IMG/VR virus record: IMGVR_UViG_3300023174_000088
Coordinates: 1-27,409 of that record
DNA from: a virus
Lineage: Duplodnaviria > Heunggongvirae > Uroviricota > Caudoviricetes
DNA length: 27,409 bases
Direction: 5' to 3' (one strand)
Position 1 is the stretch's first letter. Each line of letters starts with the position of its first letter. The notes under the pieces were generated by a model. It was not told the origin of the DNA. It ran no database searches and saw only the letters and a list, made by a program, of their open reading frames with translations. Below are positions 2,936 to 16,688 of the stretch, piece by piece. The position numbers and the translations under genes were made by a program.

Positions 2936-5209
2936 ATGAAACGTCTATTAACTATTCTATTTCTTTTTTTGAGTGTGGCTTCCTTTGGTCAAATCTACCA
3001 AGCAATGCCTCAGGCAGGATATGGTCCTGTTAAGAGAATGTTATTTGATTCCGTTCTTACAATTCCTATTGGAATTCCTGGCCTCAGGAACATCCCAGGT
3101 GGTAGGGATGTTGGTCAAATCAGATATGTTACAAGCGACAGTAGCATATATGTATACACTGGCACCAATTGGGTAAAGGCAAGTTCCAGTGGTGGTGGCC
3201 CATCCACTCCTGACACAATCGTAGCAAAATATCCTATTCGTATAGATACAACAGGGGTGAGAGACACCATCTACCTTGCACAAGCATTCCTAGACAGTGT
3301 ATATAATGGTACAACAGGATTTGGAACTGGTCTCATCACTGCTGGAATAGTGCAGACAGACACAGTGATTAATGTCACACCACCCATAGTTTGGAAAAGA
3401 AACGGAACAGTGAATACACAAAATGTTGGGGAGGCATTCCCAATAACAAGGGCTAGTACAAACTATTTTAGAACAGACCTCATTTACATCACTGGAGCAG
3501 ATACCCTGAGTTATATTCAGGGAGTGGAGAGCTTGGTCAATCCAGCAGCCCCCATTGTTCCAGTGGATGGTATAGTGATTACATATGTAAATGTCTTTGA
3601 TACACTAGTTAACGCCAGTGGACCACCCTCCACCTACCAAAGGACAGCTGTTGTCTATATAGATGCTAACACAGGCTCATTGGCTACAGATAGTGTTTCC
3701 TTCAATTGGAATCAAACCACCAAAGATCTTACAATAAGTAGTCTTGGTGGGTCAGGTACAAGAATGGTAGTAGCAAGCCCTACAGGTGTACTTAGTACGC
3801 AACCTATATCTAGCGGTGGAACAGTGACATCTGTGGGACTAACTACAGGTACAACTGGCACTGATATTAACATTGGAGCTGGTACATCCCCAGTTACAAC
3901 AAGTGGAACTATTACATTAAATGTCCCAGATGCAGGAGCCACTTCTAGGGGAGTTGTTACAACAGGAACACAAACTTTTGCAGGAAGTAAAACTTTCACC
4001 TCAGATGTAACAGTGGAAGATGCAACTTTAGGAACAAAATTTGGAACTTCAATTCTAGCAAATAGTTCACTTTATTTTGGAAACAATGCAATTGTAAGTT
4101 TGACAAGTGGCACGGGAAATACAGCCTTAGGTAATAGAGCTGGTCTTTTTTTAGGAAGCGGAAATTCTAATGTGTTCATAGGTTATCAATCATCCTCATA
4201 CAGAGGTCTTGGTAATAATAACGTAACAATTGGTGTTTCAGCTGGTAACGGTGGATTAGCTCCTGGAGGTGTAGGAGATGAAAATACAATAGTTGGATCG
4301 CAAAATTTTATCAGACCCTCTTCTGGTAATAGAAACACATCAATTGGATTTAGTAATTTTCAGCTTTGTACATCAAGCTCAAATAATACAGTGATTGGTT
4401 CAGGAATTGAGATGAATGGATTTTCCTACACTTTATCAGACAATGTAATTCTTGGCGATGGACAAGGAAATATAAGATTTAGAAACACTGGACCATCTAC
4501 ATATTTAAATGGTAATGTTGGTATTGGTAGTTTTAATATGGGAAGTCTTACACCTACAGCTTCATCATACTTATTGCATATAATAGGAACAGCTGGTGCA
4601 ACAGCGCAATATATGCAGGGTAATTTAGAAGTACAAAATGGTGGCAATGGAACAAACATAATAAATGCACAGCTCAATAGATTTTCAGCAACAGAAAATA
4701 GAATAGAAGGGCATTTGACAAGGAGTACAAGTTGGTCACAGGGAGATATCATCAACTTGGATGGAGACGCACCTACAGTTCCTACCAGCCAGGCATGGAT
4801 TCCTATTAGTTTACAATCAGGAACAGTGATAAGAACAACTGGCAGTGCTAATAATAGCATGATAAGCCTTAGGCCAACATACAATTTTACAGGGACCTAC
4901 TCTGGTGAAACAATAGGAATAGACTACAGACCCACATTAACAAGTCTTAATGGAACATCACACATTGCATTGAGAGCTACAAGTGGTCAGGTGGTGATAG
5001 GAGCAGTCACTCCAGCTGCCTCAGCTGTGGTGGACATCACCTCCACAACCCAAGGCTTTCTCCCTCCCCGAATGACAGGAGCACAAGCAGAGCTCATAAG
5101 CAGCCCTGCTGAAGGCTTGATGGTGTATTCTACAGATGGAAGTGGAACCACTATAACAAGCAAGGGATGGTGGGGATATAATGGAACAACATGGGTGAAA
5201 CTAAACTAA
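2936..5209 (+). CDS. Tail fibre/adhesin-like protein with Sec signal peptide
   Basis: Likely start is the ATG at 2936 (MKRLLTILFLFLSVASFG|Q), not 2888. Contains the shared fibre module, NTALG/NVFIG/NVTIG/NTIVG/NTSIG/NTVIG beta-roll-like repeats, and C-terminal SAVVDITSTTQGFLPPRMT...PAEGLMVY..D...WGYNGTTW, a motif familiar from Bacteroidota proteins. Confidence 0.75.
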   Translation: MKRLLTILFLFLSVASFGQIYQAMPQAGYGPVKRMLFDSVLTIPIGIPGLRNIPGGRDVGQIRYVTSDSSIYVYTGTNWVKASSSGGGPSTPDTIVAKYPIRIDTTGVRDTIYLAQAFLDSVYNGTTGFGTGLITAGIVQTDTVINVTPPIVWKRNGTVNTQNVGEAFPITRASTNYFRTDLIYITGADTLSYIQGVESLVNPAAPIVPVDGIVITYVNVFDTLVNASGPPSTYQRTAVVYIDANTGSLATDSVSFNWNQTTKDLTISSLGGSGTRMVVASPTGVLSTQPISSGGTVTSVGLTTGTTGTDINIGAGTSPVTTSGTITLNVPDAGATSRGVVTTGTQTFAGSKTFTSDVTVEDATLGTKFGTSILANSSLYFGNNAIVSLTSGTGNTALGNRAGLFLGSGNSNVFIGYQSSSYRGLGNNNVTIGVSAGNGGLAPGGVGDENTIVGSQNFIRPSSGNRNTSIGFSNFQLCTSSSNNTVIGSGIEMNGFSYTLSDNVILGDGQGNIRFRNTGPSTYLNGNVGIGSFNMGSLTPTASSYLLHIIGTAGATAQYMQGNLEVQNGGNGTNIINAQLNRFSATENRIEGHLTRSTSWSQGDIINLDGDAPTVPTSQAWIPISLQSGTVIRTTGSANNSMISLRPTYNFTGTYSGETIGIDYRPTLTSLNGTSHIALRATSGQVVIGAVTPAASAVVDITSTTQGFLPPRMTGAQAELISSPAEGLMVYSTDGSGTTITSKGWWGYNGTTWVKLN
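3845..3997 (+). repeat. Shared fibre module, copy 2
   Basis: GTTGTDINIG...LNVPDAGATSRGVVTTGTQTFAGSKTF is similar to 1367..1501. Confidence 0.75.
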
Positions 5210-5216
5210 TAATAAC

Positions 5217-5462
5217 ATGGCAAGTTTAATTGACAAAGTGAAGATTAAAGCTGGAAGACTTGTAAAGGTTTGGAACACAGAGAAAAAGAAGTTTTCCAAC
5301 GCTAAGCCCTGGTATGTCTCTGTATGGGTGGAAGATGCTAACGGAAAGAACGAGAGATGTCTTCTCTTTACAGAGGCAGAAATAAAGAAAGCTGAAGAAA
5401 GAGCTTCCAAAAATCAAGAAGACCTGACATCAAAAGCATTTTTTACAAACATAATAGACTAA
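5217..5462 (+). CDS. Hypothetical protein
   Basis: 81-aa ORF; AACATGG start context like neighbouring genes; fills the gap on the coding strand. Confidence 0.7.
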   Translation: MASLIDKVKIKAGRLVKVWNTEKKKFSNAKPWYVSVWVEDANGKNERCLLFTEAEIKKAEERASKNQEDLTSKAFFTNIID

Positions 5463-5468
5463 AAAACC

Positions 5469-5591
5469 ATGGCAAGAAGTACAAACGACATTAGAAAAGT
5501 ATCCTTTGGAAGAAGAAAGGGTGGTAAACCAACCAAGTGTAAAGGTCCTAAAGCCAAATCTGTCTCTAAATACAGAGGACAGGGGAGATAA
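5469..5591 (+). CDS. Small basic peptide ending in YRGQGR
   Basis: Not in the ORF track. Translated by hand: MARSTNDIRKVSFGRRKGGKPTKCKGPKAKSVSKYRGQGR* (40 aa); AAAAACCATGG start context; TAA stop. Confidence 0.7.
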   Translation: MARSTNDIRKVSFGRRKGGKPTKCKGPKAKSVSKYRGQGR

Positions 5592-5630
5592 TGAGAAACA
5601 ATTTTTTAACATAAATTAAAACCTCTAACA

Positions 5631-5741
5631 ATGAGTATTCCCAATCAACAAATCGGATCAAGCGTAGAAGCAAAGCTTCTATGGCAAATTTCAAAGCAGC
5701 TGGAAAAGCTGATTCAAATCACATCTAAACTCGTACCTTAA
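5631..5741 (+). CDS. Small hypothetical protein
   Basis: Not in the ORF track. MSIPNQQIGSSVEAKLLWQISKQLEKLIQITSKLVP* (36 aa); A-rich leader; amphipathic helix. Confidence 0.7.
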   Translation: MSIPNQQIGSSVEAKLLWQISKQLEKLIQITSKLVP

Positions 5742-5767
5742 TTTTTAAACAATAAAAAACAACTGTT

Positions 5768-6187
5768 ATGACACCTAATAAGAGAGACTTAAAAGCCTTT
5801 GTCCGCTTCGATGGAAGTGGGAGAGTTGTTTCAAGTAGCCTCATTCTGAGAAAACAAAAGCCCAAAGTGGGCAAATGGATGGAAGTGCAAGCCTATCAAT
5901 GCTGCAATGGACCTTCTGTTATAACCACTCCTGGTGACACTCTTCCCAGTACAAACTTCTCTGTATCCATTGCTTGTGATGGTACAGAACAAAACGTATC
6001 ATTTGTACTTGTCGGAGCGTTTACCACTATTACAGCGGTGGTAGCAGCCTTGAATCTGCAATTTGGATTTATTGGCACATTCTCTGTAGCAGAAAACGGA
6101 ACAGACATTATTGTTACGCTTTCTGAAGATATGGCTGAAACCTTTAGAGGATGCGACATCACTGTAACGTCTTCATACAACCCGTAA
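5768..6187 (+). CDS. Hypothetical protein
   Basis: 139 aa; basic N-terminal half (AFVRFDGSGRVVSSSLILRKQKPKVGKW...QCCN) and beta-rich C-terminal half. Confidence 0.7.
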   Translation: MTPNKRDLKAFVRFDGSGRVVSSSLILRKQKPKVGKWMEVQAYQCCNGPSVITTPGDTLPSTNFSVSIACDGTEQNVSFVLVGAFTTITAVVAALNLQFGFIGTFSVAENGTDIIVTLSEDMAETFRGCDITVTSSYNP

Positions 6188-6205
6188 TATATAAAACCAA
6201 AAACC

Positions 6206-6619
6206 ATGCTATCTATTTTTCCAGAAGGAATGATGGGGGGATCTTCCTCCCTATCCCTGGACAGTGTTGCTGCCAAGCTTACACATTTTGTTGACCAGTT
6301 GCATCTATTGCATTGGCAGACAACGAGTTATGCGGAGCACCAAGCTCTTGGTGGACTGTATGACAAGGTGTTTGACCTCAAGGATGAGATTGTTGAGAAG
6401 ATGATGGGCTATTCAGGAAAGCGTCCTAAAGCAATGAAACATGACATGCTCAGAGACTATTCTATTGGAATAGCTACATCTGTAGTGAGTGATCTTATGT
6501 CCTTTGCAAAGGAGCTTCAAAGTTACGCATCCTCTAACGGAATGCCTGACATTGAGAATATAGCTCAGTCTTTGTCTGGAGAAGCAGCTAAAACCAAATA
6601 CCTGTTAACACTGTCTTAA
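6206..6619 (+). CDS. Dps/ferritin-like four-helix protein (DUF5856-like)
   Basis: LHLLHWQTTSYAEHQALGGLYDKVFDLKDEIVEK matches the Dps-type HW...H......Y...D...E ferroxidase pattern; helical; 137 aa. Confidence 0.8.
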   Translation: MLSIFPEGMMGGSSSLSLDSVAAKLTHFVDQLHLLHWQTTSYAEHQALGGLYDKVFDLKDEIVEKMMGYSGKRPKAMKHDMLRDYSIGIATSVVSDLMSFAKELQSYASSNGMPDIENIAQSLSGEAAKTKYLLTLS

Positions 6620-6903
6620 TGCGGATAGTAAAAAAGTATTTTCCTGAAGTGATGTCAGATAATGATGTTGCTTATTTCAATCATTTGTTCGGAATTGTGG
6701 AGTCTGTGGATGAGCTCTGTTCACTAGAGATCACCAAGACTCCACGTTCCTATCATTTTAGGATAGCTACATCCCTTCCGAAGTATAACGAACTCCTATT
6801 GAAAGAGCTGTTGAAATACCACAACCTCTTACAGATAAAATTAAACATGGGGAAGAGCATGAAAGCCTCAGCCACCATTGTATTTGATATAGATTTAAAT
6901 TAA
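6619..6903 (+). CDS. Hypothetical protein
   Basis: 94 aa; TAATG coupling to the Dps-like gene. Confidence 0.7.
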   Translation: MRIVKKYFPEVMSDNDVAYFNHLFGIVESVDELCSLEITKTPRSYHFRIATSLPKYNELLLKELLKYHNLLQIKLNMGKSMKASATIVFDIDLN

Positions 6904-6908
6904 ACAAA

Positions 6909-7340
6909 ATGCCCACATATATCAAGACAGGCTTTTGGGACAAGATTGTTGGGAACAACCCCCAACAAGCAAAAGCCCCTAAACAATGGCTCAATCTCGA
7001 CCTATTGATTTCAAAATCAAGGGGTTATAAAGTGTATTCAGCCCTGCTGACACAAACTAATGGAAATGATCCTACAGCAATAGTGTTGGAAAACACCCTC
7101 GGACCAATTACATATCAATATTCTACTGTAGGAAGATATAGTATATTATCATCTAGCTTGTTCACTACAGATAAGACATTTATTCTTATTGGAAATTCTG
7201 TAAATCTAAACCCTGGTGAATTAGTAAACTTTGGAATAGGAGGAGACAGCTCAATAACACTATGGTCTCTTGACAACACAGGGTCACAATCTGATGATAT
7301 ATTATTAAATACTCCTATAGAAATACGAGTGTACGATTAA
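6909..7340 (+). CDS. Hypothetical virion-type beta-rich protein
   Basis: 143 aa; YKVYSALLTQTNGNDPTAIVLENTLG...STVGRY...NTPIEIRVY segment resembles domains I recall from Bacteroidota phage tail proteins. Confidence 0.6.
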   Translation: MPTYIKTGFWDKIVGNNPQQAKAPKQWLNLDLLISKSRGYKVYSALLTQTNGNDPTAIVLENTLGPITYQYSTVGRYSILSSSLFTTDKTFILIGNSVNLNPGELVNFGIGGDSSITLWSLDNTGSQSDDILLNTPIEIRVYD

Positions 7341-7348
7341 AAAAAAGA

Positions 7349-7380
7349 TTTGGAAATATCAAACTAATTACATAGATTTG
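7349..7380 (+). promoter_or_regulatory. Bacteroidota primary-sigma promoter (-33 TTTG, -7 TAnnTTTG)
   Basis: TTTG (7349-7352), 20-nt spacer, TAGATTTG (7373-7380) followed by CGCC; intergenic, 29 nt before the ATG at 7410. Confidence 0.8.
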
Positions 7381-7409
7381 CGCCATTCTTAAACCAAAAA
7401 TTAAATAAT

Positions 7410-7664
7410 ATGCAAGTAGTTAAAGGTGAAGCAGTTGCTTCCTATGATCCCAGCAAGAAGTACACATGGACTCCAGAAGACCAATTCACACTGTCTGGAG
7501 CAGAATTTGGACTGGTTTTGAACACGCTCAGAGCCATCCTTAACACTCCTGAAGCAGCCAAGATTCTTTTGGCCAACCAAGCAAATGAGGTGGTTGAATC
7601 CACCCTTGCAAAGGCTGTAGAAGCTGGTGTGGTTAAAGAGGTGACAGAAGATGGTCAACAATAA
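7410..7664 (+). CDS. Hypothetical acidic protein
   Basis: 84 aa; first gene after the promoter; A-rich leader. Confidence 0.75.
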   Translation: MQVVKGEAVASYDPSKKYTWTPEDQFTLSGAEFGLVLNTLRAILNTPEAAKILLANQANEVVESTLAKAVEAGVVKEVTEDGQQ

Positions 7665-7683
7665 TAATTTAAAACGAATGAAT

Positions 7684-8118
7684 ATGAAAAGGACAATAAA
7701 GAAGTATCAAAATGCTCCTAAGCCTGTTACGAAAAATATGGGCATGACTATGGTTGAGCTCAAGAAGAAATACCGCAATGCTGACACCTTGCGAGATGTA
7801 AGAGGTGAAGAGGTTAATGCTAATGCTCCTAAAAAAATTCTTGAGCAGTACAACGATACATATAATGCGTTTGAAAGAAAGTTTGGTAATAAAGCTGCCC
7901 CAAGTGTTAAAAAACCTGCCAAGCAGAAAATGGGAGGTGTTACAAAAAAGAAGCTCAAGATGGGTGGTGCAGTTAAGAAGGGAGACCTTGTAGCTGCTGG
8001 TGTAACCAAAACCACTAAGAAAGCTCCTATGGTAGATCCCAAAGGGGCCTTCACAAAAGTGCAACAGCGCACGCTTGGCAACATGAAGAAAGGTGGTAAA
8101 ATGTCTAAAAAGAAATAA
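7684..8118 (+). CDS. Lys-rich basic protein
   Basis: Probable start 7684 (MKRTIKK; 7678 or 7651 possible); contains KMGG twice and MKKGGK; ends KMSKKK. Confidence 0.75.
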   Translation: MKRTIKKYQNAPKPVTKNMGMTMVELKKKYRNADTLRDVRGEEVNANAPKKILEQYNDTYNAFERKFGNKAAPSVKKPAKQKMGGVTKKKLKMGGAVKKGDLVAAGVTKTTKKAPMVDPKGAFTKVQQRTLGNMKKGGKMSKKK

Positions 8119-8120
8119 CC

Positions 8121-8447
8121 ATGGCTACAGTTAAGAAAATTAAGAAAGCACAAGGTGGAGACAGTCTTGCTATAAAAAAATCTGCTATATATAAAGCAAG
8201 CAAACCTACATTAGATTCTGCAGGAAAAAAGAACATGAACATTTTAAATGAAATGATTCCTATTGCACAACCTAAATTGAAGGCAATTAAAGCTAAAGAT
8301 GGTAAATGGATTCAGAAAGCCACAGCCTCCATTAAGCGTAGAGGTACAGAGGGTAAATGCACCCCCATCACTAAGCCAGGATGCACAGGTAGGGCTAAGG
8401 CTCTTGCTAAGACATTCAAGGCTATGGCCAAAGCTCGCAAGAAATAA
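8121..8447 (+). CDS. Lys-rich basic protein
   Basis: MATVKKIKKAQGG...AKDGKWIQKATASIKRRGTEGKCTPITKPGCTGRAKALAKTFK; 108 aa. Confidence 0.8.
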   Translation: MATVKKIKKAQGGDSLAIKKSAIYKASKPTLDSAGKKNMNILNEMIPIAQPKLKAIKAKDGKWIQKATASIKRRGTEGKCTPITKPGCTGRAKALAKTFKAMAKARKK

Positions 8448-8803
8448 TGCCTACAATTAAGAAACTTTTACAAGATGCTCCTAGGATGCGTGGTGTAACT
8501 CCTGTTCCTATGGGGCCTCTTGTTAAAAAGAAGGGGCAGTTCAAAGGAAGCACATTGAAATCTGGAGGAAGAGTGAAGGTGAGTGCTGGTGGTGAGAAGC
8601 ATGTTGTATATAAGAAAGAAAGTGCTACAGGTGTTGGCAAAGGCAAGAAAGGTCATATTATGGTGAACCACCCCACCAAAGACAAGGGAAAATGGGACAC
8701 TATAGACCTTACAGAGAAAGCTAAAGCCAAGACAGTTAAGCAAGGTGTAGCAGCCACAAAGAAATGGCATAAAGAAAATCCCTATCCTAAAAAGAAGAAA
8801 TAA
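8447..8803 (+). CDS. Lys-rich basic protein
   Basis: MPTIKK...LKSGG...; TAATG coupling at both ends; 118 aa. Confidence 0.8.
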   Translation: MPTIKKLLQDAPRMRGVTPVPMGPLVKKKGQFKGSTLKSGGRVKVSAGGEKHVVYKKESATGVGKGKKGHIMVNHPTKDKGKWDTIDLTEKAKAKTVKQGVAATKKWHKENPYPKKKK

Positions 8804-8979
8804 TGGCCACTATTAAAAAACCCATTCTGAAAAGAGCTGATGGCTCATATTCCCAAAGAGGACTTTGGGATAACTTGAGGAGCAAAGCAGCCCAGAATAA
8901 GAAAACTGGTGCTAAACCTAAAGCTCCCACCAAAGCTATGTTGACTCAGGAGAAAAAGATCAAAGCTAAAGGAAAATGA
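8803..8979 (+). CDS. Small Lys-rich protein
   Basis: Not in the ORF track. MATIKKPILKRADGSYSQRGLWDNLRSKAAQNKKTGAKPKAPTKAMLTQEKKIKAKGK* (58 aa); TAATG overlap upstream, ATGA overlap downstream. Confidence 0.8.
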   Translation: MATIKKPILKRADGSYSQRGLWDNLRSKAAQNKKTGAKPKAPTKAMLTQEKKIKAKGK

Positions 8980-9599
8980 TACTAGCTATTAGTGATGATT
9001 GTAAACGAAAATACTTCTCTGAGAAGAAAAAAGGAGGAGTTATTTACAAAATTACTAATGAAATAGATGGTAATTTTTATATAGGAAGTACAAATAATCT
9101 GATAAAAAGGTATTATACCCATGTAAATCACATAAGAACTGGCAAGAATAGTTGTGTAAAACTAATCAGAGCAGTTAACAAACATGGAGAAGAAAACTTT
9201 AAATTTGAGATTATTTGTGAGTGTTCTACTGAAGAGATTCTTAAAACAGAACAAGAATATATTGATAATCTACAGCCACATTATAATGTAGCTAAGATTG
9301 CTGGCAGTAACCTTGGGATAAAAAGAACTGAAGAGGTTAAGTTTAAAAAGTCAGCTTCTCAGAAGGAAAACTGGAAAGATGAAACTTATAGAGCCAAACA
9401 CCTAGAAAACTTATCAAAGAATTGGAAATCTGGTTCTAATCACAAAATGGCTAAACTTACAGAAGAACAGGTAATTGAGATTAAAAAACAATTATCAACT
9501 GGACTTCTCCCTAAGCAAGTAGCAGATAATCTTAAACTTAGTTATTACTCTATAAAAGATATTCATAGAGGAAAGACTTGGAAAAATATAAAAATTTAA
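8976..9599 (+). CDS. GIY-YIG homing endonuclease (free-standing, Seg-like)
   Basis: GVIYKITNEIDGNFYIGSTNNLIKRYYTH (GIY...YIG plus catalytic Arg), later EQEYI...YN; C-terminal helix-turn-helix-like AKLTEEQVIEIKK...SIKDIHRGKTW; visibly AT-richer than its neighbours. Confidence 0.9.
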   Translation: MILAISDDCKRKYFSEKKKGGVIYKITNEIDGNFYIGSTNNLIKRYYTHVNHIRTGKNSCVKLIRAVNKHGEENFKFEIICECSTEEILKTEQEYIDNLQPHYNVAKIAGSNLGIKRTEEVKFKKSASQKENWKDETYRAKHLENLSKNWKSGSNHKMAKLTEEQVIEIKKQLSTGLLPKQVADNLKLSYYSIKDIHRGKTWKNIKI

Positions 9600-9611
9600 A
9601 TCTAAGAAATA

Positions 9612-9881
9612 ATGGCAAGTGCAGCATGGCAAAAGAAAGAAGGAAAATCAGAATCTGGAGGATTGAATGCTAAGGGTGTTGCTTCCTACAGGAGGGAAAA
9701 TCCTGGAAGTAAGCTGAAAATGGCTGTAACTACCCCACCATCTAAACTTAAACCTGGAAGTAAAGCAGCAAACAGAAGAAAAAGTTTCTGTGCTCGAATG
9801 TCAGGGGTCGAGGGTCCTATGAAAAAGCCTAACGGTAAGCCTACAAGAAAAGCATTGGCATTAAGAAAATGGAATTGTTAA
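9612..9881 (+). CDS. Basic phage protein, DUF6321-like
   Basis: AAWQKKEGK...GGLNAKG...RRKSFCARM.G...GKPTRKALALRKWNC matches my recollection of the DUF6321 pattern. Confidence 0.75.
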   Translation: MASAAWQKKEGKSESGGLNAKGVASYRRENPGSKLKMAVTTPPSKLKPGSKAANRRKSFCARMSGVEGPMKKPNGKPTRKALALRKWNC

Positions 9882-9900
9882 CTAAAAATAAACTAAAAAA

Positions 9901-10068
9901 ATGAAAAAAGTATTGTTCGTATTGACACTGTCTGCATTGTTCACAGCATGTACATCTGTAGAAACCGAAGAGGTTAAACAAGATTCTACCATCATCGATT
10001 CCCTAAAGAGTGTTAAATCTGACACTACATGTGTAGAAGAGATTGACACCACCGCTAAAAAGAAATAA
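9901..10068 (+). CDS. Small lipoprotein
   Basis: Not in the ORF track. MKKVLFVLTLSALFTA|CTSVETEEVKQDSTIIDSLKSVKSDTTCVEEIDTTAKKK* (55 aa); basic n-region, hydrophobic h-region, lipobox FTAC. Confidence 0.8.
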   Translation: MKKVLFVLTLSALFTACTSVETEEVKQDSTIIDSLKSVKSDTTCVEEIDTTAKKK

Positions 10069-10070
10069 TC

Positions 10071-10412
10071 ATGGCAACAATTAAGAAGGCCTGCAAAGGT
10101 ACAAGCACTCCCAAATCCTCCAGTGTTTCCTCTCGTCTAGGATCTCCTAGCAAGGCTAAGTCTGGCACATCTCTCGGTATGAAGTCTGTAAAGGCTGGGT
10201 TTGATAAAAACCCTGGCGTTACAAGAGCTGACATTATTGTAGCTGGTAAGGGTCAAGCTAAGAAAGGAATGAAGGTTAAGAAGCAAGCTGCTACAGCAAT
10301 TGCTATGAAGAAAGCTGGCAAAGCTCCTAAAGCCATGATGGGAAACATGATGAAAAGCCCAATGATGAAAACTGGTGGCAAGATGGGCAAATGCAAATAC
10401 GGCTGTAAATAA
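10071..10412 (+). CDS. Lys/Met-rich basic protein
   Basis: MATIKKACKG...AKSG...DKNPGVTRADII...AKKG...MMGNMMKSPMMKTGGKMGKCKYGCK; 113 aa. Confidence 0.8.
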   Translation: MATIKKACKGTSTPKSSSVSSRLGSPSKAKSGTSLGMKSVKAGFDKNPGVTRADIIVAGKGQAKKGMKVKKQAATAIAMKKAGKAPKAMMGNMMKSPMMKTGGKMGKCKYGCK

Positions 10413-10433
10413 TCAACGAAAAATACAAATTTT

Positions 10434-13400
10434 ATGAAAAAAGCAATAACATTATTGTTATTTGTTCTTTATTGCTTTGTAGCTAACGCTACAAATTTTT
10501 ATGTTTCTAATATAGGTAATGATACCAATCCTGGAACATTAGCTTCCCCTTGGGCCACCACCTCTAAAGTGAATAGCTCAATGGGAAGTTTTGTTGCTGG
10601 GGATTCTATTCTTTTCCAGCGTGGAGGGGAGTTCTTTGGGACACTCACTGTCAACAAAGCAGGAGTGATTATTGGAGCTTACGGAACAGGCAATCTTCCC
10701 ATTATTACAGGCTTTAAGACACTCTCTGGATGGACAAATTCAGGAACTAATCTTTGGAACTCCGCTACGGCATCTCCTAAATCTTACATGAAGGTTGTTA
10801 CTTTAAATGGCGTAATGATAAGAATGGGTAGATTTCCCGATTGGGCAGATGCTCCAAGTGCTTGGTTAACATACACAAATAGTCTAACTGCAGGTATTAG
10901 TCCCATCACTGTAAATTCTGCTCAAACTCTTTCAACAACTTTTGTAGGTGGGGAACTTGTTTTAAGGAAAGAGCCTTATGTTTTAGATGTAATGCCAATT
11001 CTTTCGCAAACAGGAACAGGACTTAATATATTTAGCTGTACAAACCCCGATCCTAAGTGGTATGGTATAGGAAACTTTGGTTACTTCATCCAAAATCACC
11101 CATCAACCCTATCGGTGCAAAACGAATGGTATTTCAATCCATCCACTAAAAACATTACATTTTTTAGCACTTCAGTTCCTACAGGAGTGATTAAAGGAGC
11201 GGTATTTGATACCCTAGTGAGGGTTACGGAGGCAGATGTCACCATAGAAAATTTAGACATTCAAGGTAGCAACAGATTTGGGATTCACTCAACGGGGAGC
11301 AACTTTAGGCTAAAGAACAGCATCGTAAGATTTGCAGGATATTTTGGAGTTCAGCCTCTTGGGTCTTATACCATTACAAATAATACTATTAGAGATGTTG
11401 GAACTTGTGCGATTTATGCCAATAATAGTGGATTGATTCAAGGTAATCAAGTGAAAGCCATAGGTATGATTGATGGCATGGGGGCAAGCGGTAATGATCT
11501 TATGTTTGGGATTGCTCTTGAGAGTAACAACATAACGGTGCGAAACAATGTAGTTGATTCAATTTCTTATAGTGGAATTAAGATAGGTGGCTCAACAAAT
11601 GGTAATAATATCCTGATTCGTGAAAATGTAGTCAGTAATACCTGCATGAATAAAACTGATGGAGGTGGTATTTATTCGTATGGTGCTCGTGGCACTTGGA
11701 ATTTGACAAACAGGGTTATTAAAAGGAACATTCTTGTCAATAATGGCAAAATTGTGTATGGTATGCCAGGGGATGATGTAACTCTTTATTTCCCAATGTA
11801 CATGGACGGAGGTGCGATGAATGTAATAATTGATAGCAATGTAATTGCTTACGACAATGTAAGTCAAAACTCAGTTAATTCTCAGGGGATATGGAATAAT
11901 TATGCCATACTATTAAATAATCCAAAAAACATAACCCTTACCAACAATATAACATTTGCAACTCCGATTTCTTTTTCAATAAACGATTATTCTGGTATAC
12001 CCAAACCTACATTAAATACTATTACAAACAATTGTTTTTATGTAAACACCACACCAGGAGGCTCAAATTATAAAGAAACAAATAGATGTTTCTTTTGGCA
12101 TGCTCAACAAAATAGAACTCAAGCAGAAATGCAAATAGACATTGGGGCAATTGGAACTATGAATAATAATTATTACAACAATAATACATTATCTCCTTTT
12201 GGATGGACATCATATTCAGTTAATAGCACAGGGTTTCCAATAAAACTTGCAGGATGGCAATCGTTCAGCGGTAAGGATGCAGCTAGCGTTTCTACACCAA
12301 ACATTACTCCAGAATTTCAATATAACGCAACAGGTTCTCCAATTACATATGCTTTCAGTGGCAGGCAAAAGAAAGATTTTAAAGGGAACATCTATAACAA
12401 TCAGGCCACAATTGAACCCTACTACGCTAACATCTTCTTTGATAATGGTCCAGCTACAGGTACAAGCCTTGCAGCGTTTTCCACTGCATCTCAGATTAAC
12501 TGTGCAGGGGGCACTGCAACTGTAACTGTCACTGCTACAGGGGGTGTTCCTCCATATAGCGGTACAGGAACTTTCACTGTGACAGCAGGAACATACACAT
12601 ACACTGTTACAGATGCTGCCACCCCCACACCAAACAGCATCACCACCAGCATCACTGTCACACAGCCCCCAGTGCTTTCTGTTAATTCCAGCAAGACAAA
12701 TGTTCTCTGTAATGGAGGAAGTACAGGCACCATCACTGTTGTTGCAAGCGGTGGAACTCCTAATTACACATACAATTGGGGAGGTGGTGTGACAACACAG
12801 AATAGAACAGCATTGCCCATCGGTACATACACATGTACCATAACCGACTCTAAAGGATGCACAACAACAACATCACAGACGATCAACCAGCCAACAGCAT
12901 TATCAGCTGGAACTCCGACAGCACCAGCGATTTTGGTGAATGGAGGCACAACAACAATAACACAACCTGTTCCTACGGGGGCCACTTCACCCTATCAATA
13001 TCAGTTGAATACTGGGGCCTTCCAGACGAGCAATGTGTTCAATAATGTTTCTGCAGGTAATTACACTATCAACATCAAGGATGCTAACAATTGCACAATT
13101 GCAAGAACCATCTCTATAACACAGCCTACAGTGTTTTCAGCTACAGCCTCTGCTGGTACAATAGCCTGTAACGGAGGTAGTACGAATGTTGTTGTAAGCG
13201 CTTCAGGAGGCACTGCTCCCTACACTGGTACAGGTACATTCTCCAGAACTGCTGGAACTTATGTATTCACTGTTACAGATGCAGGTGGCTCCACAGCTTC
13301 TGCGAATGTTGTGATTACACAGCCTACAGTGATTACATCCACTGTAGCTTCTACAAATGTCACTTGTAATGGGGCATCTTCAGGATCTATCACTCTTACG

Positions 13401-14447
13401 GTGAATGGTGGAACTCCTGGATATACATTCCTCTGGAATGGAGGTCAAACCACACAGAACAGGACAGCTATTCCTGCAGGCACGTACACTGTAACTGTTA
13501 CAGATGCAAATGCTTGCACCCTCAACAGAAGCGTTACAATTACAGAGCCCACAGCTCTCTCAGTGACATCCTCTGTAAACCCCACAAATATCCTTTGCAA
13601 TGGAGGAACATCCTCTGTGACAATAGGGGCATCAGGAGGTTCATCTCCCTATACAGGGCTTGGAACTTTCCCACAGTCTGCAGGAACAGTCACCTATATA
13701 GTGACAGATGCTAATGGCTGTCCTGCAAGCAGACCCATAACATTGACACAGCCTGCTGTTCTTACAGCTTCCAATCCCACATCAGGAACCATTACAGTGA
13801 ACGGTGGAAACACCACCATCACACAACCAGTTCCTACAGGAGGTGTAAGTCCTTATACATATTCTCTTAACACAGGAGCATTCCAATCAAGCAATGTCTT
13901 TACAGGAGTGGCTGCTGGTACATATACAGTGAACATCAAAGATGCTAATGGATGTATAATTACAAAATCCATATCCATCACACAGCCTGCAGTGTTCAGT
14001 GCTTCTGCTGTACAAACTGGCCCAACAATCAATTGTAACGGACAAAATACAATTGTTACAGTGAGTGCAACAGGTGGCACAGCGCCTTATACAGGCACAG
14101 GAACTTTCACCGTACCTGCTGGTCCATATAATTACACGGTTACAGATGCCCTAGGAAACACAGCATCTGCTTCCATCACTATTTCTCAGCCTACAGAAGT
14201 GGTTGCCTCTATAGCAGCAGGATCCATCACCTCTGTTGGAGGCACTACGAATATTGTTGTTTCAGCCACAGGAGGTGTTCTGCCCTATACAGGAACAGGA
14301 ACATTTACAAGAGGAGCTGGACTGTATTCATTTACAGTGACAGACTCTAACGGATGTTCCAGTGTAGCTACAGTTTCTATAAATGACCCAGTCGTTATAC
14401 CCAACCAGTATTTAATCCTAAACTCCGTATTCAAAAATGGCAATTAA
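10434..14447 (+). CDS. Secreted right-handed beta-helix (pectin lyase-like) protein with SprB-type repeats
   Basis: Signal peptide MKKAITLLLFVLYCFVANA|; TNFYVSNIGNDTNPGTLASPWAT is a typical beta-helix N-terminus; Asn-ladder repeats and DGGGIY; then nine C(N)GG...GG..PY...AGTY..TVTDA.GC...I.QP repeats; no T9SS C-terminal domain. Confidence 0.85.
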   Translation: MKKAITLLLFVLYCFVANATNFYVSNIGNDTNPGTLASPWATTSKVNSSMGSFVAGDSILFQRGGEFFGTLTVNKAGVIIGAYGTGNLPIITGFKTLSGWTNSGTNLWNSATASPKSYMKVVTLNGVMIRMGRFPDWADAPSAWLTYTNSLTAGISPITVNSAQTLSTTFVGGELVLRKEPYVLDVMPILSQTGTGLNIFSCTNPDPKWYGIGNFGYFIQNHPSTLSVQNEWYFNPSTKNITFFSTSVPTGVIKGAVFDTLVRVTEADVTIENLDIQGSNRFGIHSTGSNFRLKNSIVRFAGYFGVQPLGSYTITNNTIRDVGTCAIYANNSGLIQGNQVKAIGMIDGMGASGNDLMFGIALESNNITVRNNVVDSISYSGIKIGGSTNGNNILIRENVVSNTCMNKTDGGGIYSYGARGTWNLTNRVIKRNILVNNGKIVYGMPGDDVTLYFPMYMDGGAMNVIIDSNVIAYDNVSQNSVNSQGIWNNYAILLNNPKNITLTNNITFATPISFSINDYSGIPKPTLNTITNNCFYVNTTPGGSNYKETNRCFFWHAQQNRTQAEMQIDIGAIGTMNNNYYNNNTLSPFGWTSYSVNSTGFPIKLAGWQSFSGKDAASVSTPNITPEFQYNATGSPITYAFSGRQKKDFKGNIYNNQATIEPYYANIFFDNGPATGTSLAAFSTASQINCAGGTATVTVTATGGVPPYSGTGTFTVTAGTYTYTVTDAATPTPNSITTSITVTQPPVLSVNSSKTNVLCNGGSTGTITVVASGGTPNYTYNWGGGVTTQNRTALPIGTYTCTITDSKGCTTTTSQTINQPTALSAGTPTAPAILVNGGTTTITQPVPTGATSPYQYQLNTGAFQTSNVFNNVSAGNYTINIKDANNCTIARTISITQPTVFSATASAGTIACNGGSTNVVVSASGGTAPYTGTGTFSRTAGTYVFTVTDAGGSTASANVVITQPTVITSTVASTNVTCNGASSGSITLTVNGGTPGYTFLWNGGQTTQNRTAIPAGTYTVTVTDANACTLNRSVTITEPTALSVTSSVNPTNILCNGGTSSVTIGASGGSSPYTGLGTFPQSAGTVTYIVTDANGCPASRPITLTQPAVLTASNPTSGTITVNGGNTTITQPVPTGGVSPYTYSLNTGAFQSSNVFTGVAAGTYTVNIKDANGCIITKSISITQPAVFSASAVQTGPTINCNGQNTIVTVSATGGTAPYTGTGTFTVPAGPYNYTVTDALGNTASASITISQPTEVVASIAAGSITSVGGTTNIVVSATGGVLPYTGTGTFTRGAGLYSFTVTDSNGCSSVATVSINDPVVIPNQYLILNSVFKNGN
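12471..14390 (+). repeat. Nine tandem SprB-like repeats (about 65-78 aa each)
   Basis: Three subtypes: short PYTGTGTF (S), YTYxW...TTQNRTA (W), and TITQPVPTG...LNTGAFQ.SNVF (F), in the order S-W-F-S-W-S-F-S-S. Confidence 0.85.
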
Positions 14448-14679
14448 CATTAGAAGATCCGTAACACTTGGCGAAATGATCGGTATGTCCATAGTGTTGT
14501 TCGGGTGTGTAATGTCCTTTTGGATAAACACATCTGTAAGACTAGCAGCCCTAGAGCTCAACCAGAAAAACACAGAAGTTAAGTATGACCAGGTGCAAAT
14601 GCAGCTTAACAAGATGAATGATAAGATTGATAAGATGAGTGAGGCACTCAACCATCTTATTGGAAAACTTGACAAATGA
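14437..14679 (+). CDS. Membrane protein, one TM plus coiled coil (lysis-cassette accessory or holin-like)
   Basis: Hydrophobic IGMSIVLFGCVMSFWI followed by a heptad-rich tail; overlaps the previous gene by 11 nt. Confidence 0.7.
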   Translation: MAINIRRSVTLGEMIGMSIVLFGCVMSFWINTSVRLAALELNQKNTEVKYDQVQMQLNKMNDKIDKMSEALNHLIGKLDK

Positions 14680-14774
14680 GCAACACAGCACTGGTTATTC
14701 TTAGTTTTGTTTCCGTGATTGCAGGGTTCGTCACCCTGGAATTGATTATACATAAACTAATGAAGAAAAAATGA
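14676..14774 (+). CDS. 32-aa single-TM peptide
   Basis: Not in the ORF track. MSNTALVILSFVSVIAGFVTLELIIHKLMKKK*; ATGA overlaps at both ends. Confidence 0.65.
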   Translation: MSNTALVILSFVSVIAGFVTLELIIHKLMKKK

Positions 14775-15061
14775 AGAAGTTTTTTGAAAACCCAGGTATT
14801 CTTGCTCAACTTCCAGCCTTGATAGCTGTCCTCATCCTATTTCCAATATTTGGAACTACTGCTACAGATGCCCCTGTAAAGGTGGATGCAAGTTTCTACA
14901 TCTGGCAAACTGCCTTGTGTGTCCTTGTATTGGTTGAACATGTATTCTTTATGAAGAAAGAGGGAGAGGTTCACATGTCAGGAACAGCAAGACCTATTGT
15001 ATTGGGATTCTTTTTGGTGTCATTTGTTCTCACTATTTTAAACTTAATGCGTTACCAATAA
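14771..15061 (+). CDS. Membrane protein, about three TM segments
   Basis: Three hydrophobic stretches (ILAQLPALIAVLILFPIF; FYIWQTALCVLVLV; IVLGFFLVSFVLTILNL). Confidence 0.7.
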   Translation: MKKFFENPGILAQLPALIAVLILFPIFGTTATDAPVKVDASFYIWQTALCVLVLVEHVFFMKKEGEVHMSGTARPIVLGFFLVSFVLTILNLMRYQ

Positions 15062-15071
15062 AAACAAACTT

Positions 15072-15296
15072 ATGAAATCCAAATTTTTAAGCCTTAATGC
15101 CACTGATTTCCTTAGAGGACTTGTAGTGTCTGTGCTCTCAGCTGTTCTTACAATTGTCTATCAAACCATCCAAGCAGGAAGCTTGGTGTTTGATTGGAAA
15201 GCAATTGGAACTATTGCAGCTAGTGCTGCTTTGGGATATATTCTCAAAAACTTGCTGACAAACTCTGAAGATCAGCTTTTCAAAAAGGAACCTTGA
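15072..15296 (+). CDS. Putative holin
   Basis: 74 aa; two TM segments (GLVVSVLSAVLTIVY; AIGTIAASAALGYIL) and a charged C-terminus; upstream of the endolysin. Confidence 0.65.
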   Translation: MKSKFLSLNATDFLRGLVVSVLSAVLTIVYQTIQAGSLVFDWKAIGTIAASAALGYILKNLLTNSEDQLFKKEP

Positions 15297-15688
15297 TAGT
15301 ATTTCAATTACATCTTGTCATCTTCATAATAGTTTCAGCCTGTCACGATGGATTGGCTGAACTATTAAGAAGCTCTACGTCAGGAACTGCTATACAAATT
15401 AAACGTAGGGTGGATCTTTGGCATATGGCTGGGAGTGGGTTGTATATTATATCAGCACTTCCTTGGCTTTATACAATAGCATGGTGGAAAATACTGGTGT
15501 GTCTTCCTTTGATAAGAGGAGCTCTGTTCAATCCCATTAGGAACTACGTATGTAATGAACCTATGTGGTATGTGGGACATACAGCTAAGACAGACATCCT
15601 CTTGAGGAGAATTGCAGGAATAAACTCTGCATGGTTGCTATCGGCTGCATCAATTCTGTTATTGCTCATCTTCAACATTTTGACATGA
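15293..15688 (+). CDS. Multi-pass membrane protein
   Basis: TTG start overlapping the previous TGA; about four hydrophobic segments; R.ALFN..RN....WYVG..AKTD loop. Confidence 0.6.
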   Translation: MIVFQLHLVIFIIVSACHDGLAELLRSSTSGTAIQIKRRVDLWHMAGSGLYIISALPWLYTIAWWKILVCLPLIRGALFNPIRNYVCNEPMWYVGHTAKTDILLRRIAGINSAWLLSAASILLLLIFNILT

Positions 15689-16191
15689 AATATGTATTAG
15701 GCTTGGTTTTTGCCACACTCGTATTAGCTTCTTGCTATACAGACAAGAAAGCCATAAAGCAGATAGAAAAGGCTATGGAGAAGAAGCCTGAGCTCACTCT
15801 TGAGAAGTTCAGAGCTAATTATCCATGTATAGAGACAAGCTCTGACACAACAATCGTCATTAAAGACACCACTATAGAAGTGGAGGTTGAGTGTCCAGAT
15901 CTTGTTGATACAACATTCATCAGGGACACTATCAAGACTGTGAATAATAAGGTGGTTATTAAGAAGGTGCCTGTTAAGGTGCAACTTCCTGGTCAGGTTA
16001 TTACAAAATACATTGAGGACAGCGCTAAGATAAAGTTGCTCTCTATAGAGAACCAAAAGCTCATTGACGAGAACAAAAAGCTCAAATATGAGGTGAACCA
16101 TCTTAAATCCTGGAGAAAATACCTGATTATTCCCTATCTTTTAGTAATTTTATTCCTCATTATAAAAGCACTCACTAAGAAAAGTTTATGA
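15685..16191 (+). CDS. Lipoprotein with C-terminal TM, unimolecular-spanin-like
   Basis: Likely start 15685 (ATGA overlap): MKYVLGLVFATLVLAS|C lipobox; beta-rich middle, coiled coil, then YLIIPYLLVILFLII TM and a basic tail. This is the u-spanin topology. Confidence 0.7.
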   Translation: MKYVLGLVFATLVLASCYTDKKAIKQIEKAMEKKPELTLEKFRANYPCIETSSDTTIVIKDTTIEVEVECPDLVDTTFIRDTIKTVNNKVVIKKVPVKVQLPGQVITKYIEDSAKIKLLSIENQKLIDENKKLKYEVNHLKSWRKYLIIPYLLVILFLIIKALTKKSL

Positions 16192-16688
16192 AACCAAAAG
16201 ACTTTGTGAACACCTTTCTTCAATTTGCTGTAGAGACGGAAAGAAAAACAGGAATAAACGCATATTTTACATTAGCTCAGGCAGCTATCGAGAGTGGGTG
16301 GGGAGATATGGCTCCAGGAAACGCATTCTTTGGTGTAAAGGACACTGATGGGGTGAATGGAAACGAACAGCTTCTCACCACAACAGAATACAGCAGGAGA
16401 ATGGATCTGAAGTTTCCCGTAGTGATTAGTGTCACTCCTGTCATGAGGAACGGCATAAGGATGTTCAAATACATCGTTAAGGACTATTTCAGAAAATACG
16501 ACACTCCTGAGGAGTGCTTTACAGAGCACAGCCAGTTCTTTCTAAAGAATAAAAGGTATGCAAAAGCATTAGAAGTGAGGGAAGATCCTTATAAATTCGC
16601 TGATGCTGTAGCTAGAGCAGGGTATGCAACAGATCCCAACTACGCTAAATTGTTAAAGGATGTCATAAAAATGATTGAGAATTTATGA
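16188..16688 (+). CDS. Endolysin, GH73 glucosaminidase/muramidase (FlgJ-type domain)
   Basis: LAQAAIESGWG (catalytic Glu), NAFFGVK, FRKYDTPEE and GYATDPNYA motifs; no signal peptide. Confidence 0.9.
   Translation: MKPKDFVNTFLQFAVETERKTGINAYFTLAQAAIESGWGDMAPGNAFFGVKDTDGVNGNEQLLTTTEYSRRMDLKFPVVISVTPVMRNGIRMFKYIVKDYFRKYDTPEECFTEHSQFFLKNKRYAKALEVREDPYKFADAVARAGYATDPNYAKLLKDVIKMIENL

Follow-up and report, generated by a model that had tools for sequence, protein, structure and literature searches.

A crAss-like phage gene for a predicted Sec-exported, GH141-like glycanase with a SprB-type stalk and no T9SS sorting domain

A freshwater crAss-like phage of approx. 115 kb carries a whole gene (10434..14447, + strand) for a protein of 1337 residues plus stop, in which a predicted signal peptide is followed by a GH141-like beta-helix, nine SprB-type repeats and a short tail, without a T9SS C-terminal domain (CTD). 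A sequence-only reading had already described this architecture, apart from the likeness to GH141; that observation is confirmed here, and the interpretation built on it is supported in part. The window analysed (27,409 nucleotides) covers the first 27.4 kb of an IMG/VR virus record of 114,968 bp, which is 99% complete according to CheckV. The explanation that we favour, with about even confidence, is that the product is an exported depolymerase or receptor-destroying enzyme that is not part of the virion and is freed by lysis. Given that the export signal has been kept and the T9SS tag lost, this putative glycanase probably matures in the periplasm, as opposed to being assembled onto virions in the cytoplasm.

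The gene and its close homologues are intact, which excludes the earlier concern that it could be a decaying host fragment; orthologues of 826 to 2322 residues are found intact on many contigs, and at least two different phage backbones carry the gene, with identities of 84% in the head and 70% in the stalk. The possibility of a chimeric contig is likewise excluded, since contigs from four independent freshwater and lake studies bridge the SprB array and the lysis genes at about 98% identity, and the flanks on both sides of the gene match those of a syntenic relative (L002). A search for homologues of the 1337-residue protein in cultured phages found none.

The head of the protein (residues 20–676; 10491..12461, + strand) is predicted to form a right-handed beta-helix with a terminal beta-sandwich. 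Pfam Beta_helix matches residues 266–421 (E 1e-7) and the AF2 model of residues 1–690 has a pLDDT of 93.9, so the beta-helix that had been recognised from the sequence alone is well founded. The top structural match with VIA-align is BT_1002 (5mqp_A; Z 27.5, rmsd 2.8 Å over 457 residues), which exceeds the next entry by 4.6 Z; with Foldseek the GH141 structure is matched at E 9e-17, and the family profile against BT_1002 gives E values of 1.3e-14 and 3.4e-7. By both structural methods, GH141 and GH120 are the closest enzyme folds; phage tailspikes are also among the matches (Z 19–22; Foldseek E 1e-8 to 1e-4), outscored by some epimerases and NosD. The Pfam model GH141_M matches five of 35 viral homologues and not the present protein, whose best sequence match is 9rx2, an uncharacterised "parallel beta-helix repeat protein" (E 2e-24).

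In BT_1002, D523 is the nucleophile and D564 the acid/base (PMC10154630). The family profile aligns these two residues, 41 positions apart (SEQRES numbering offset +5), with D409 in KTDGGGIY (11658..11660, + strand) and D458 in YMDGG (11805..11807, + strand), the candidate nucleophile and general acid/base, respectively. D409 is invariant in the 60, 35 and 40 homologues of three alignments, and both residues are invariant across the family. With GH141 as the best structural match and the catalytic Asp pair conserved, the head is a plausible glycanase, as judged from the sequence and the model. Known members of GH141 (BT_1002, PDB 5MQP; the xylanase Cthe_2195; and recently described endo-fucanases) have in common with the modelled head the right-handed beta-helix and an inserted or accessory beta-sandwich, besides the Asp of the DGGGIY and Y-x-D-G motifs. 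On the other hand, identity between the head and BT_1002 is only 13–16%, and the N-terminal cap resembles that of GH136 lacto-N-biosidases. The GH141-like nature of the head, with both catalytic Asp retained, is new here.

The stalk (residues 677–1319; 12462..14390, + strand) consists of nine SprB-type Ig-like repeats, the number proposed previously; Pfam recognises six SprB stretches (PF13573, E 1.6e-30), self-alignment resolves nine units of 66–78 residues, and AF2 models the last three as beta-sandwiches with pLDDT above 90. The sequence-only reading had also pointed to CNG...GC Cys pairs that could form disulfides in the periplasm. Such pairs are indeed present in R2, R5 and R6, but this was overstated, as the other six of the nine repeats lack the canonical pair; it is kept in 27% of 114 phage-clade repeats versus 86% of 2,914 bacterial repeats. 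The disulfide rationale is thereby weakened: one obvious reason for a stay in the periplasm falls away, and the loss would also be compatible with cytoplasmic folding.

The abrupt end noted before is real: the protein stops 18 residues past the last repeat, with the tail VVIPNQYLILNSVFKNGN (14391..14444, + strand). This tail is predicted to be flexible, since AF2 models it as coil with a pLDDT that drops from about 69 at its start to under 50 at its end. No unit of the phage clade is more conserved than the last repeat, which, together with the tail, remains conserved while the head and the number of repeats vary between variants. Conservation of the terminal NGN acts at the protein level, as in one relative (L136) it is coded by AAC GGA AAT without an overlapping gene. 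These conserved elements hint at a docking partner, for which a freely soluble enzyme would have no need. The conserved terminal repeat and tail, as well as the loss of the Cys pair in most repeats, are observations that count against the reading that we favour.

SprB from Flavobacterium johnsoniae is a giant gliding adhesin with a type B CTD at its end, and is paired with a sprF/PorP-like gene. The phage protein contains PF13573 repeats as SprB does, but it has 1337 residues, no CTD, and phage genes as its neighbours. The names "SprB-like adhesin" and "receptor decoy" given to it earlier are not supported: PF13573 repeats are generic stalk modules present in thousands of T9SS cargo proteins, and nothing ties this protein to the function of SprB.

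The lack of a CTD, already suspected, was borne out by profile searches. No CTD was detected in the protein with Pfam, and NCBIfam gave no hits. In a six-frame scan of the whole genome the best match for type A (PF18962/TIGR04183) was to PF18962, at 11.9 bits, below the cut-off of 27, and lay inside R7; for type B (PF13585 CHU_C/TIGR04131), the same scan gave no PF13585 match. Among the viral homologues scanned, 34 of 35 are devoid of Por_Secre_tail, which is present in 65 of the 120 database homologues listed (about half). As for the opposite end, of the 45 viral homologues whose 5' end is complete, 36 retain the signal peptide; the nine without it mostly have the domain embedded in much larger proteins, two resemble start miscalls and one is a distant homologue. 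Across the phage copies, the CTD is systematically lost while the signal peptide is kept, and the finding that the protein belongs to a large phage family, mostly signal-bearing and without a CTD, is new.

The Sec/SPI-type signal peptide of the present protein (residues 1–19, MKKAITLLLFVLYCFVANA; 10434..10490, + strand) is a prediction that comes from visual judgement and a crude script. Its n-, h- and c-regions end in an A-x-A site with a predicted cut before T20, so that the mature protein would start with TNFYVSN. AF2 shows the region as a lone helix (pLDDT 63–68). This N-terminal organisation, already proposed to be a Sec signal, is common to all close homologues and to the bacterial T9SS-cargo homologues, with which the N-terminus is collinear, and it persists across identities of 26–84%. 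The glycanase carries the predicted N-terminal Sec signal of a T9SS cargo protein.

Among bacteria, the nearest relatives are neighbouring genes for two T9SS cargo proteins in a metagenome-assembled genome of an uncultured Ferruginibacter (CAZZLI010000004.1). Their products, of 2486 and 886 residues, have the same order of signal peptide, beta-helix and SprB repeats; the phage protein is 44% identical to P0018 over the head, and identity in the stalk is 53%. The bacterial proteins end with a type A sorting domain, scored at 27.8 bits in the 2486-residue protein and at a sub-threshold 16.1 bits in P0018. The locus of the closest bacterial homologue also holds sugar epimerases and glycosyltransferases. 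In the tree, viral and CTD-bearing rows interleave, and well-supported branches force at least 20 changes of label; the CTD has therefore been lost, or not taken, repeatedly. The host-like architecture and its nearest relatives agree with the earlier proposal of a captured host surface protein, and the sequences suggest T9SS cargo proteins of hosts of the Chitinophagaceae type as the source of the gene. The homologues are mosaics of head and stalk, which recombine independently of each other. In lake populations the catalytic core lies in a variable island (10604..12297, + strand) that was recognised from contigs and coverage: coverage of this interval is low in all four runs, and a contig of 5,809 nt from run X7 keeps 9864–10604 and 12297–15080, with unlike sequence of similar length in between. 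It is the enzyme head that is specific to strains and exchanged rapidly; the last repeat and tail stay conserved. Also new are the interleaving of phage and bacterial copies, the Ferruginibacter relatives, the variable island of the catalytic core and the independent recombination of head and stalk.

Another aspect is the position of the gene, which lies where the tail-fibre module meets the lysis module, both in this phage and in about 10 of the 18 relatives inspected. The overlap of its stop codon (TAA, 14445–14447) with the gene that opens the lysis cassette (14437..14679, + strand), which the sequence-only reading had seen, amounts to 11 nt, counted from the ATG at 14437; this lysis gene codes for an 80-residue protein that has one TM helix at its N-terminus, and a coiled coil. 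This overlap is also present in L002, L004 and L006, and the 80-residue gene is deleted in L005. The rest of the cassette (14771..16688, + strand) comprises three small membrane proteins, a u-spanin-like lipoprotein (15631–16191) and a Glucosaminidase endolysin (16188–16688; PF01832, E 7.5e-28). In crAss001, a cultured crAss-like phage, this position ahead of the lysis genes is held by tailspikes, a circumstance that speaks against our preferred reading. Among the large proteins of the genome, only two have a signal peptide, and both belong to the host-interaction module: the glycanase and a tail-fibre-like protein of 757 residues (2936..5209, + strand; MKRLLTILFLFLSVASFG followed by Q). The latter has among its relatives a conserved mature N-terminus and a variable C-terminus, as is typical of virion fibres, yet it bears a signal peptide; this observation too counts against that reading.

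The explanation of an exported, non-virion enzyme can be put together as follows. The GH141-like head, at the N-terminal end of the nine-repeat stalk, would be a Sec-exported enzyme that cleaves glycans. It would be expressed late, together and translationally coupled with the lysis cassette, carried by Sec over the inner membrane and cut by signal peptidase I. Without a CTD it could not use the T9SS translocon, and would therefore accumulate in the periplasm. There it may cleave a polysaccharide of the host envelope or matrix, and it could do so in the surroundings once the holin, endolysin and spanin have lysed the cell. As a soluble depolymerase or receptor-destroying enzyme, it would clear capsule or EPS for the progeny, or prevent these from sticking to debris. 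It would not be a tailspike assembled in the cytoplasm; the mature N-terminus opens directly with the beta-helix cap, as in the bacterial homologues, and no virion-adaptor domain was found there by sequence comparison or in the AF2 model.

A less probable explanation, although the one that survives best among the alternatives, is that the glycanase and the fibre-like protein at 2936–5209 are exported and then join the tail, at the envelope or after lysis, through the terminal repeat and tail, forming a depolymerase spike. The gene is the last of the tail-fibre module in four relatives (L004–L006 and L136), and its signal-bearing neighbours share fibre domains with a signal-less fibre (1133–2089). 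The constancy of the terminal repeat and tail while head and repeat number vary would suit such an attachment, as would the predicted flexibility of the tail, which recalls a linear docking motif. Moreover, viral homologues of approx. 660 residues replace the CTD by a Pro-rich linker and GK-rich, hairpin-like tails (GK at 3.13 versus 0.30 per 100 residues), and the homologue P0010, on a T4-like contig, is preceded by a gene of the fibre type (PTL_trimer). However, the literature searched describes no pathway that adds periplasmic proteins to tailed virions, the enzyme has no recognisable adaptor domain, the signal-less fibres of the genome could act as receptor-binding proteins, and the signal is absent where phages embed the domain in giant structural proteins. 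A wider version, which we regard as rather doubtful, is that many Bacteroidota phages export fibre-like proteins and depolymerases through Sec, for folding in the periplasm and docking, by short C-terminal tails, to completed particles or to an envelope structure made by the phage; in the present protein, the last repeat with the NGN tail would serve for docking. If true, this would be an extracytoplasmic step in tailed-phage assembly or exit that is absent from textbooks.

It is improbable that the protein is a trimeric, virion-bound tailspike of the P22, Sf6 or CBA120 type that stays in the cytoplasm, with a hydrophobic N-terminus that does not work as a signal peptide. The tailspikes among the structural matches, the crAss001-like position and the loss of most Cys pairs would fit this proposal, but the closer enzyme folds are GH141 and GH120, an N-terminal particle-binding domain is missing, and the n-h-c N-terminus aligns collinearly with bacterial homologues, for which T9SS makes Sec export a necessity. 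Equally improbable is that the living infected cell displays or secretes the glycanase without a canonical CTD, with the terminal repeat and tail as a cryptic sorting signal for T9SS or another system; the surface may then be remodelled before lysis, e.g., for superinfection exclusion through receptor destruction. In its favour, T9SS CTDs too are beta-sandwiches of the Ig-like type at the very end of the protein, conservation within the clade is highest in the terminal module, and phage-encoded T9SS cargo exists (PMC7468147), with one viral homologue (L008) that carries a CTD. Nevertheless, the CTD models give no match to the terminal module, a type-B model built from 43 bacterial sequences does not score the tail above shuffled sequences, and the CTD-bearing relative P0016 has the same "DPxxxP" linker followed by a separate canonical CTD, so that the phage tail looks like the linker alone. 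Finally, the idea of a passenger gene (moron) from which the phage gains little, recently captured from a host and with its 3' end lost, is very hard to sustain, since the host-like origin, the frequent exchange with bacteria and the 5-kb block of small genes that separates it here from the fibre genes are outweighed by the intact orthologues on many contigs, the presence of the gene in at least two backbones, the invariant catalytic residues and the recurrence of the stalk and downstream genes in independent studies.

Among the related phage systems known is that of "Cryophage" (Bellas et al. 2020, PMC7468147), for which phage-encoded T9SS cargo was reported. In both cases, glycanase-type genes of host origin are carried by phages of T9SS-bearing hosts and lie in hypervariable regions ("metagenomic islands"); however, the Cryophage proteins have a type A CTD and were proposed to be secreted by the host system, whereas the present protein is phage-borne and has a signal peptide but no CTD. 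Virion tailspikes (P22, Sf6, CBA120, Klebsiella depolymerases and crAss001 gp22-26) share with it a glycan-cleaving beta-helix head, the location by the fibres and before the lysis genes, and the modular exchange of the enzymatic part. In contrast, they bind the particle through an N-terminal domain and lack a signal peptide, the latter checked for the annotated tailspikes and tail fibres gp22-26 of crAss001, while the glycanase has a signal peptide, no adaptor domain and a stalk that is C-terminal to the enzyme. Bacteroidota phages are known to encode proteins with Sec signals (Matrishin et al. 2023, PMC10367356): in Porphyromonas gingivalis phages, Sec/SPI substrates are thought to act on the host envelope and follow the Bacteroidetes Q-rule, as does the neighbour at 2936–5209, which exposes Gln after the predicted cut; the glycanase exposes Thr. 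Those proteins are of unknown function and belong to temperate phages, whereas the protein described here is a putative stalked enzyme of 1337 residues from a large crAss-like phage, in whose late module it is encoded.

The glycanase gene, located at positions 10434-14447 of the plus strand, is an intact ORF that encodes a protein of 1337 residues. The protein starts with a predicted Sec/SPI-type signal peptide (residues 1-19; MKK, then a hydrophobic core and the cut ANA/T), shows a Pfam Beta_helix match at residues 266-421 within its head, and continues in a stalk of nine SprB repeats of 66-78 residues each (residues 677-1319; Pfam E 1.6e-30, with the units defined by self-alignment), after which there is a C-terminal tail of 18 residues and then the stop codon. 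The ATG of the next gene lies upstream of this TAA, so that the two genes overlap by 11 nt; the 80-residue product of that gene has a single TM helix and a coiled coil, and after it come three further small membrane proteins, a u-spanin-like lipoprotein with a C-terminal TM helix, and a Glucosaminidase endolysin. The description of the protein made in the sequence-only reading was correct, including the overlapped stop and the absence of a detectable C-terminal sorting domain (CTD) for type IX secretion (T9SS). The u-spanin architecture was recognized in the 186-residue product of 15631-16191, from its lipobox (LVLA/SC) and C-terminal TM helix; proteins of this type are also present in four other loci that carry homologues of the glycanase (L005, L006, L018 and L136). 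The window makes up the first 27.4 kb of the phage record, which comprises 114,968 bp, is rated as 99% complete by CheckV, and contains giant ORFs of 4753, 2220 and 1848 residues that point to a crAss-like phage.

The AF2 model of residues 1-690 (pLDDT 93.9) revealed a right-handed beta-helix with a terminal beta-sandwich. Its best structural match by both methods was BT_1002 from Bacteroides thetaiotaomicron, the founding GH141 enzyme (Foldseek E 9e-17; VIA-align Z 27.5, rmsd 2.8 A, 457 residues), with a VIA-align score well above those of the next entries. Likewise, the family profile matched BT_1002 with an E of 1.3e-14; it also matches GH136 lacto-N-biosidases, at the N-terminal cap, and the uncharacterised structure 9rx2 (E 2e-24), and Pfam GH141_M was matched by five viral homologues. 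Residue by residue, D409 (KTDGGGIY) and D458 (YMDGG) align with two aspartates of BT_1002 that are 41 residues apart and are reported as its nucleophile (D523) and its acid/base (D564) (PMC10154630). Neither D409 nor D458 varies in alignments of 60 and of 40 homologues, and among 35 viral proteins D409 is again invariant, with D458 close to it (at least 90%). The head looks to be a GH141-like glycanase, and the enzyme looks active.

It had been considered that the contig could be chimeric, or the gene a decaying host fragment, and neither possibility holds. The first is excluded by the synteny of locus L002, where the flanking genes on both sides are 57-98% identical and the same 11-nt overlap is found, and by bridging metagenome contigs: at least six studies of freshwater and lakes have metagenomes with parts of the gene, four of them have contigs that run from the SprB array through the stop codon into the lysis genes at ~98% identity, and one contig of 5.8 kb joins the upstream gene to the start of the ORF. 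The second is excluded given that the orthologues, of 826-2322 residues, are all intact. The sequencing runs listed as containing parts of the gene included none of RNA. In L004-L006 and L136 the glycanase gene is placed directly after the tail-fibre genes and before the lysis genes; in the window and in L002 a block of small genes of ~5 kb (5217-10412), missing in those four loci, separates it from the fibre genes. This block includes a Dps-like gene (6206-6619; phrog_858), a gene for a GIY-YIG endonuclease (8976-9599), and genes for very Lys-rich small proteins (7651-8118, 8121-8447, 8447-8803, 9612-9881 and 10071-10412) that belong to neither a PHROG nor a Pfam family. The Lys-rich block (7651-10412) shows many indels and replaced segments in lake metagenomes.

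Close homologues, with heads 40-82% identical, were found on phage contigs, among them a T4-like one (Gp23, gp13) and L136, a second phage backbone whose endolysin is of the CHAP type. The more distant ones are beta-helix proteins of bacteria, chiefly Chitinophagaceae, Cytophagales and Bacteroidales. The nearest bacterial relatives are two proteins encoded by neighbouring genes in an uncultured Ferruginibacter MAG (L003 10001-20571). One of them, of 886 residues, consists of a beta-helix only, 44% identical to the head, and matches a CTD weakly; the other, of 2486 residues, has a beta-helix, SprB repeats (53% identical to the stalk) and a Por_Secre_tail, i.e., a type A CTD. This pair of T9SS cargo proteins is adjoined by sugar epimerases, an oxidoreductase and a glycosyltransferase, and may represent glycanases encoded inside a polysaccharide-synthesis locus. 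No homologue from a cultured phage was detected when the whole protein, the head alone and the neighbouring fibre were compared by tblastn with 50,697 phage records, which gave weak or partial matches only, to one cyanophage and to records of uncultured phages; a megablast of the window gave no match.

A scan of IMG/VR yielded 51 loci with homologues. Among the homologues whose 5' end is complete, 36 of 45 show a signal-peptide-like N-terminus; the nine signal-less exceptions are six domains embedded in proteins of 1314-3429 residues, one distant homologue of 1167 residues, and two probable start miscalls. In turn, a Pfam scan detected a T9SS CTD in one of 35 viral proteins versus 65 of the 120 listed database homologues. 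A phylogeny had been suggested in the sequence-only reading; a tree of 162 heads revealed that viral and CTD-bearing copies interleave, with at least 20 label changes forced by well-supported branches; therefore, the enzyme has been exchanged many times between phages and hosts. The phage copies regularly appear to retain the predicted Sec signal without T9SS sorting, and this repeated convergence is the strongest argument for the missing CTD being functional, not accidental. Where the bacterial CTD would be, viral homologues of ~660 residues have a linker rich in Pro and then a short tail in which the GK dipeptide is enriched ten-fold. Hairpin-like ends rich in GK/NGK (e.g., 'PYGVNGKLWKF' and 'MYNGKRLHYNGKTLRY') were observed in L007, L013, L017, L022, L024, L034, L038 and others, and recall foldon or cell-wall-binding-repeat hairpins.

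Comparison with three homologous proteins gave identities for head and stalk of 76% and 99% (P0006), 48% and 81% (P0014), and 84% and 70% (P0004), a pattern indicating that both parts recombine independently. Lake metagenomes cover the catalytic core (10604-12297) poorly or have other sequence in its place, and its flanks show ~98% identity; a variable core with conserved flanks is the behaviour of host-specificity determinants.

Regarding the stalk, its last three repeats were modelled by AF2 as Ig-like sandwiches (pLDDT >90). The labels of 'SprB-like adhesin' and 'decoy' that had been given to the protein are unsupported; repeats of this type serve as general-purpose stalk modules and occur in T9SS cargo proteins by the thousand. 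The canonical SprB Cys pair occurs in three of the nine units, in 27% of 114 phage-clade units and in 86% of 2,914 units from 117 bacterial proteins; given that it is mostly missing in the phage clade, the case for periplasmic folding that had been built on disulfides is weak. Two single Cys residues are invariant in the clade and lack their canonical partners: residue 1201 (repeat 8, N-terminal position; nt 14034-14036) and residue 1308 (repeat 9, C-terminal position; nt 14355-14357). The 18-residue tail was modelled as coil, with a pLDDT of ~69 dropping to <50, and resembles an inter-repeat linker; the CTD-bearing homologue P0016 has the same 'DPxxxP' linker, followed by a separate canonical CTD. 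A vestige of the start of a type B CTD ('IPNAFTPNGDG') was rejected as an explanation for this tail, because real tails scored no better than shuffled ones with an HMM of 43 bacterial CTDs. The terminal NGN is likewise no by-product of the overlapping ATG: L136 uses other codons for NGN, with no overlapping gene, and L005 keeps the tail though the downstream gene is deleted, which also argues against the 80-residue protein as an obligate partner of the tail.

It is proposed, with roughly even chances, that the product is a soluble depolymerase or receptor-destroying enzyme, a reading in which we infer export, retention, timing and substrate. The glycanase would be exported by Sec and, having no CTD, would build up in the periplasm late in infection until lysis frees it; its target would be a host envelope or matrix polysaccharide. 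It is possible, with a distinctly smaller chance, that the protein is an appendage maturing outside the cytoplasm, which then docks via a conserved terminal module. The last repeat and the tail are the best-conserved part of the clade, irrespective of head or repeat number. A homotrimer prediction for residues 1186-1337, in three copies, scored 0.00, which counts neither for nor against a trimer. Neighbouring fibre-like proteins often carry predicted signal peptides as well. In the window this is the case of the 757-residue tail-fibre-like protein encoded at 2936-5209. Across L002 and L004-L006 the N-terminus of the mature form is strongly conserved and the C-termini differ; a conserved Met just past the predicted cut could yield a signal-less isoform.

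It is unlikely that the protein is a cytoplasmic tailspike whose 'signal' does not function. Phage depolymerases are usually regarded as particle parts made in the cytoplasm. In L025, L026, L031, L032 and L035 the beta-helix domain lies inside giant phage proteins (1668-3429 residues) without a signal peptide, a second and presumably virion-bound deployment of the enzyme by phages. Cryptic sorting to the cell surface is just as doubtful; no T9SS sorting domain was detected in the protein or in any frame of the whole phage genome. That the gene is a passenger is highly improbable. The recurrence of at least 36 phage copies with a host export signal and without the outer-membrane secretion tag is too frequent for accident.

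If the glycanase acts in the periplasm or free after lysis, as in the soluble-enzyme proposal, it would represent a distinct class of phage exit/spread factors for T9SS-bearing Bacteroidota and a ready source of strain-specific glycanases; if it is on virions instead, there would be an unrecognised extracytoplasmic step in tailed-phage assembly. Since the enzyme head is a variable island in lake populations, such enzymes may mark phage-host pairings, i.e., who infects whom.

Phage depolymerases are already in print, and so is phage-encoded T9SS cargo; for the latter see PMC7468147. The combination of a signal-bearing, systematically CTD-less GH141-like enzyme with an SprB-type stalk, a position at the fibre/lysis junction and a variable head was absent from the literature searched, which likewise contained nothing relevant on tail fibres with signal peptides in Flavobacterium or crAss-like phages. 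In the cultured crAss-like phage crAss001 the annotated tailspikes/fibres gp22-26 occupy the same pre-lysis position as the glycanase gene and have no signal peptides. The predicted cut of the fibre-like protein 2936-5209 exposes a Gln (SFG/QIYQAMPQ), as in the 'Q-rule' of Bacteroidota, where Gln is exposed after the signal cut; Bacteroidota phages with signal-peptide proteins have been described (PMC10367356). Finally, the variable core of the glycanase parallels the phage-encoded T9SS-cargo genes of 'Cryophage', which are also variable (PMC7468147).
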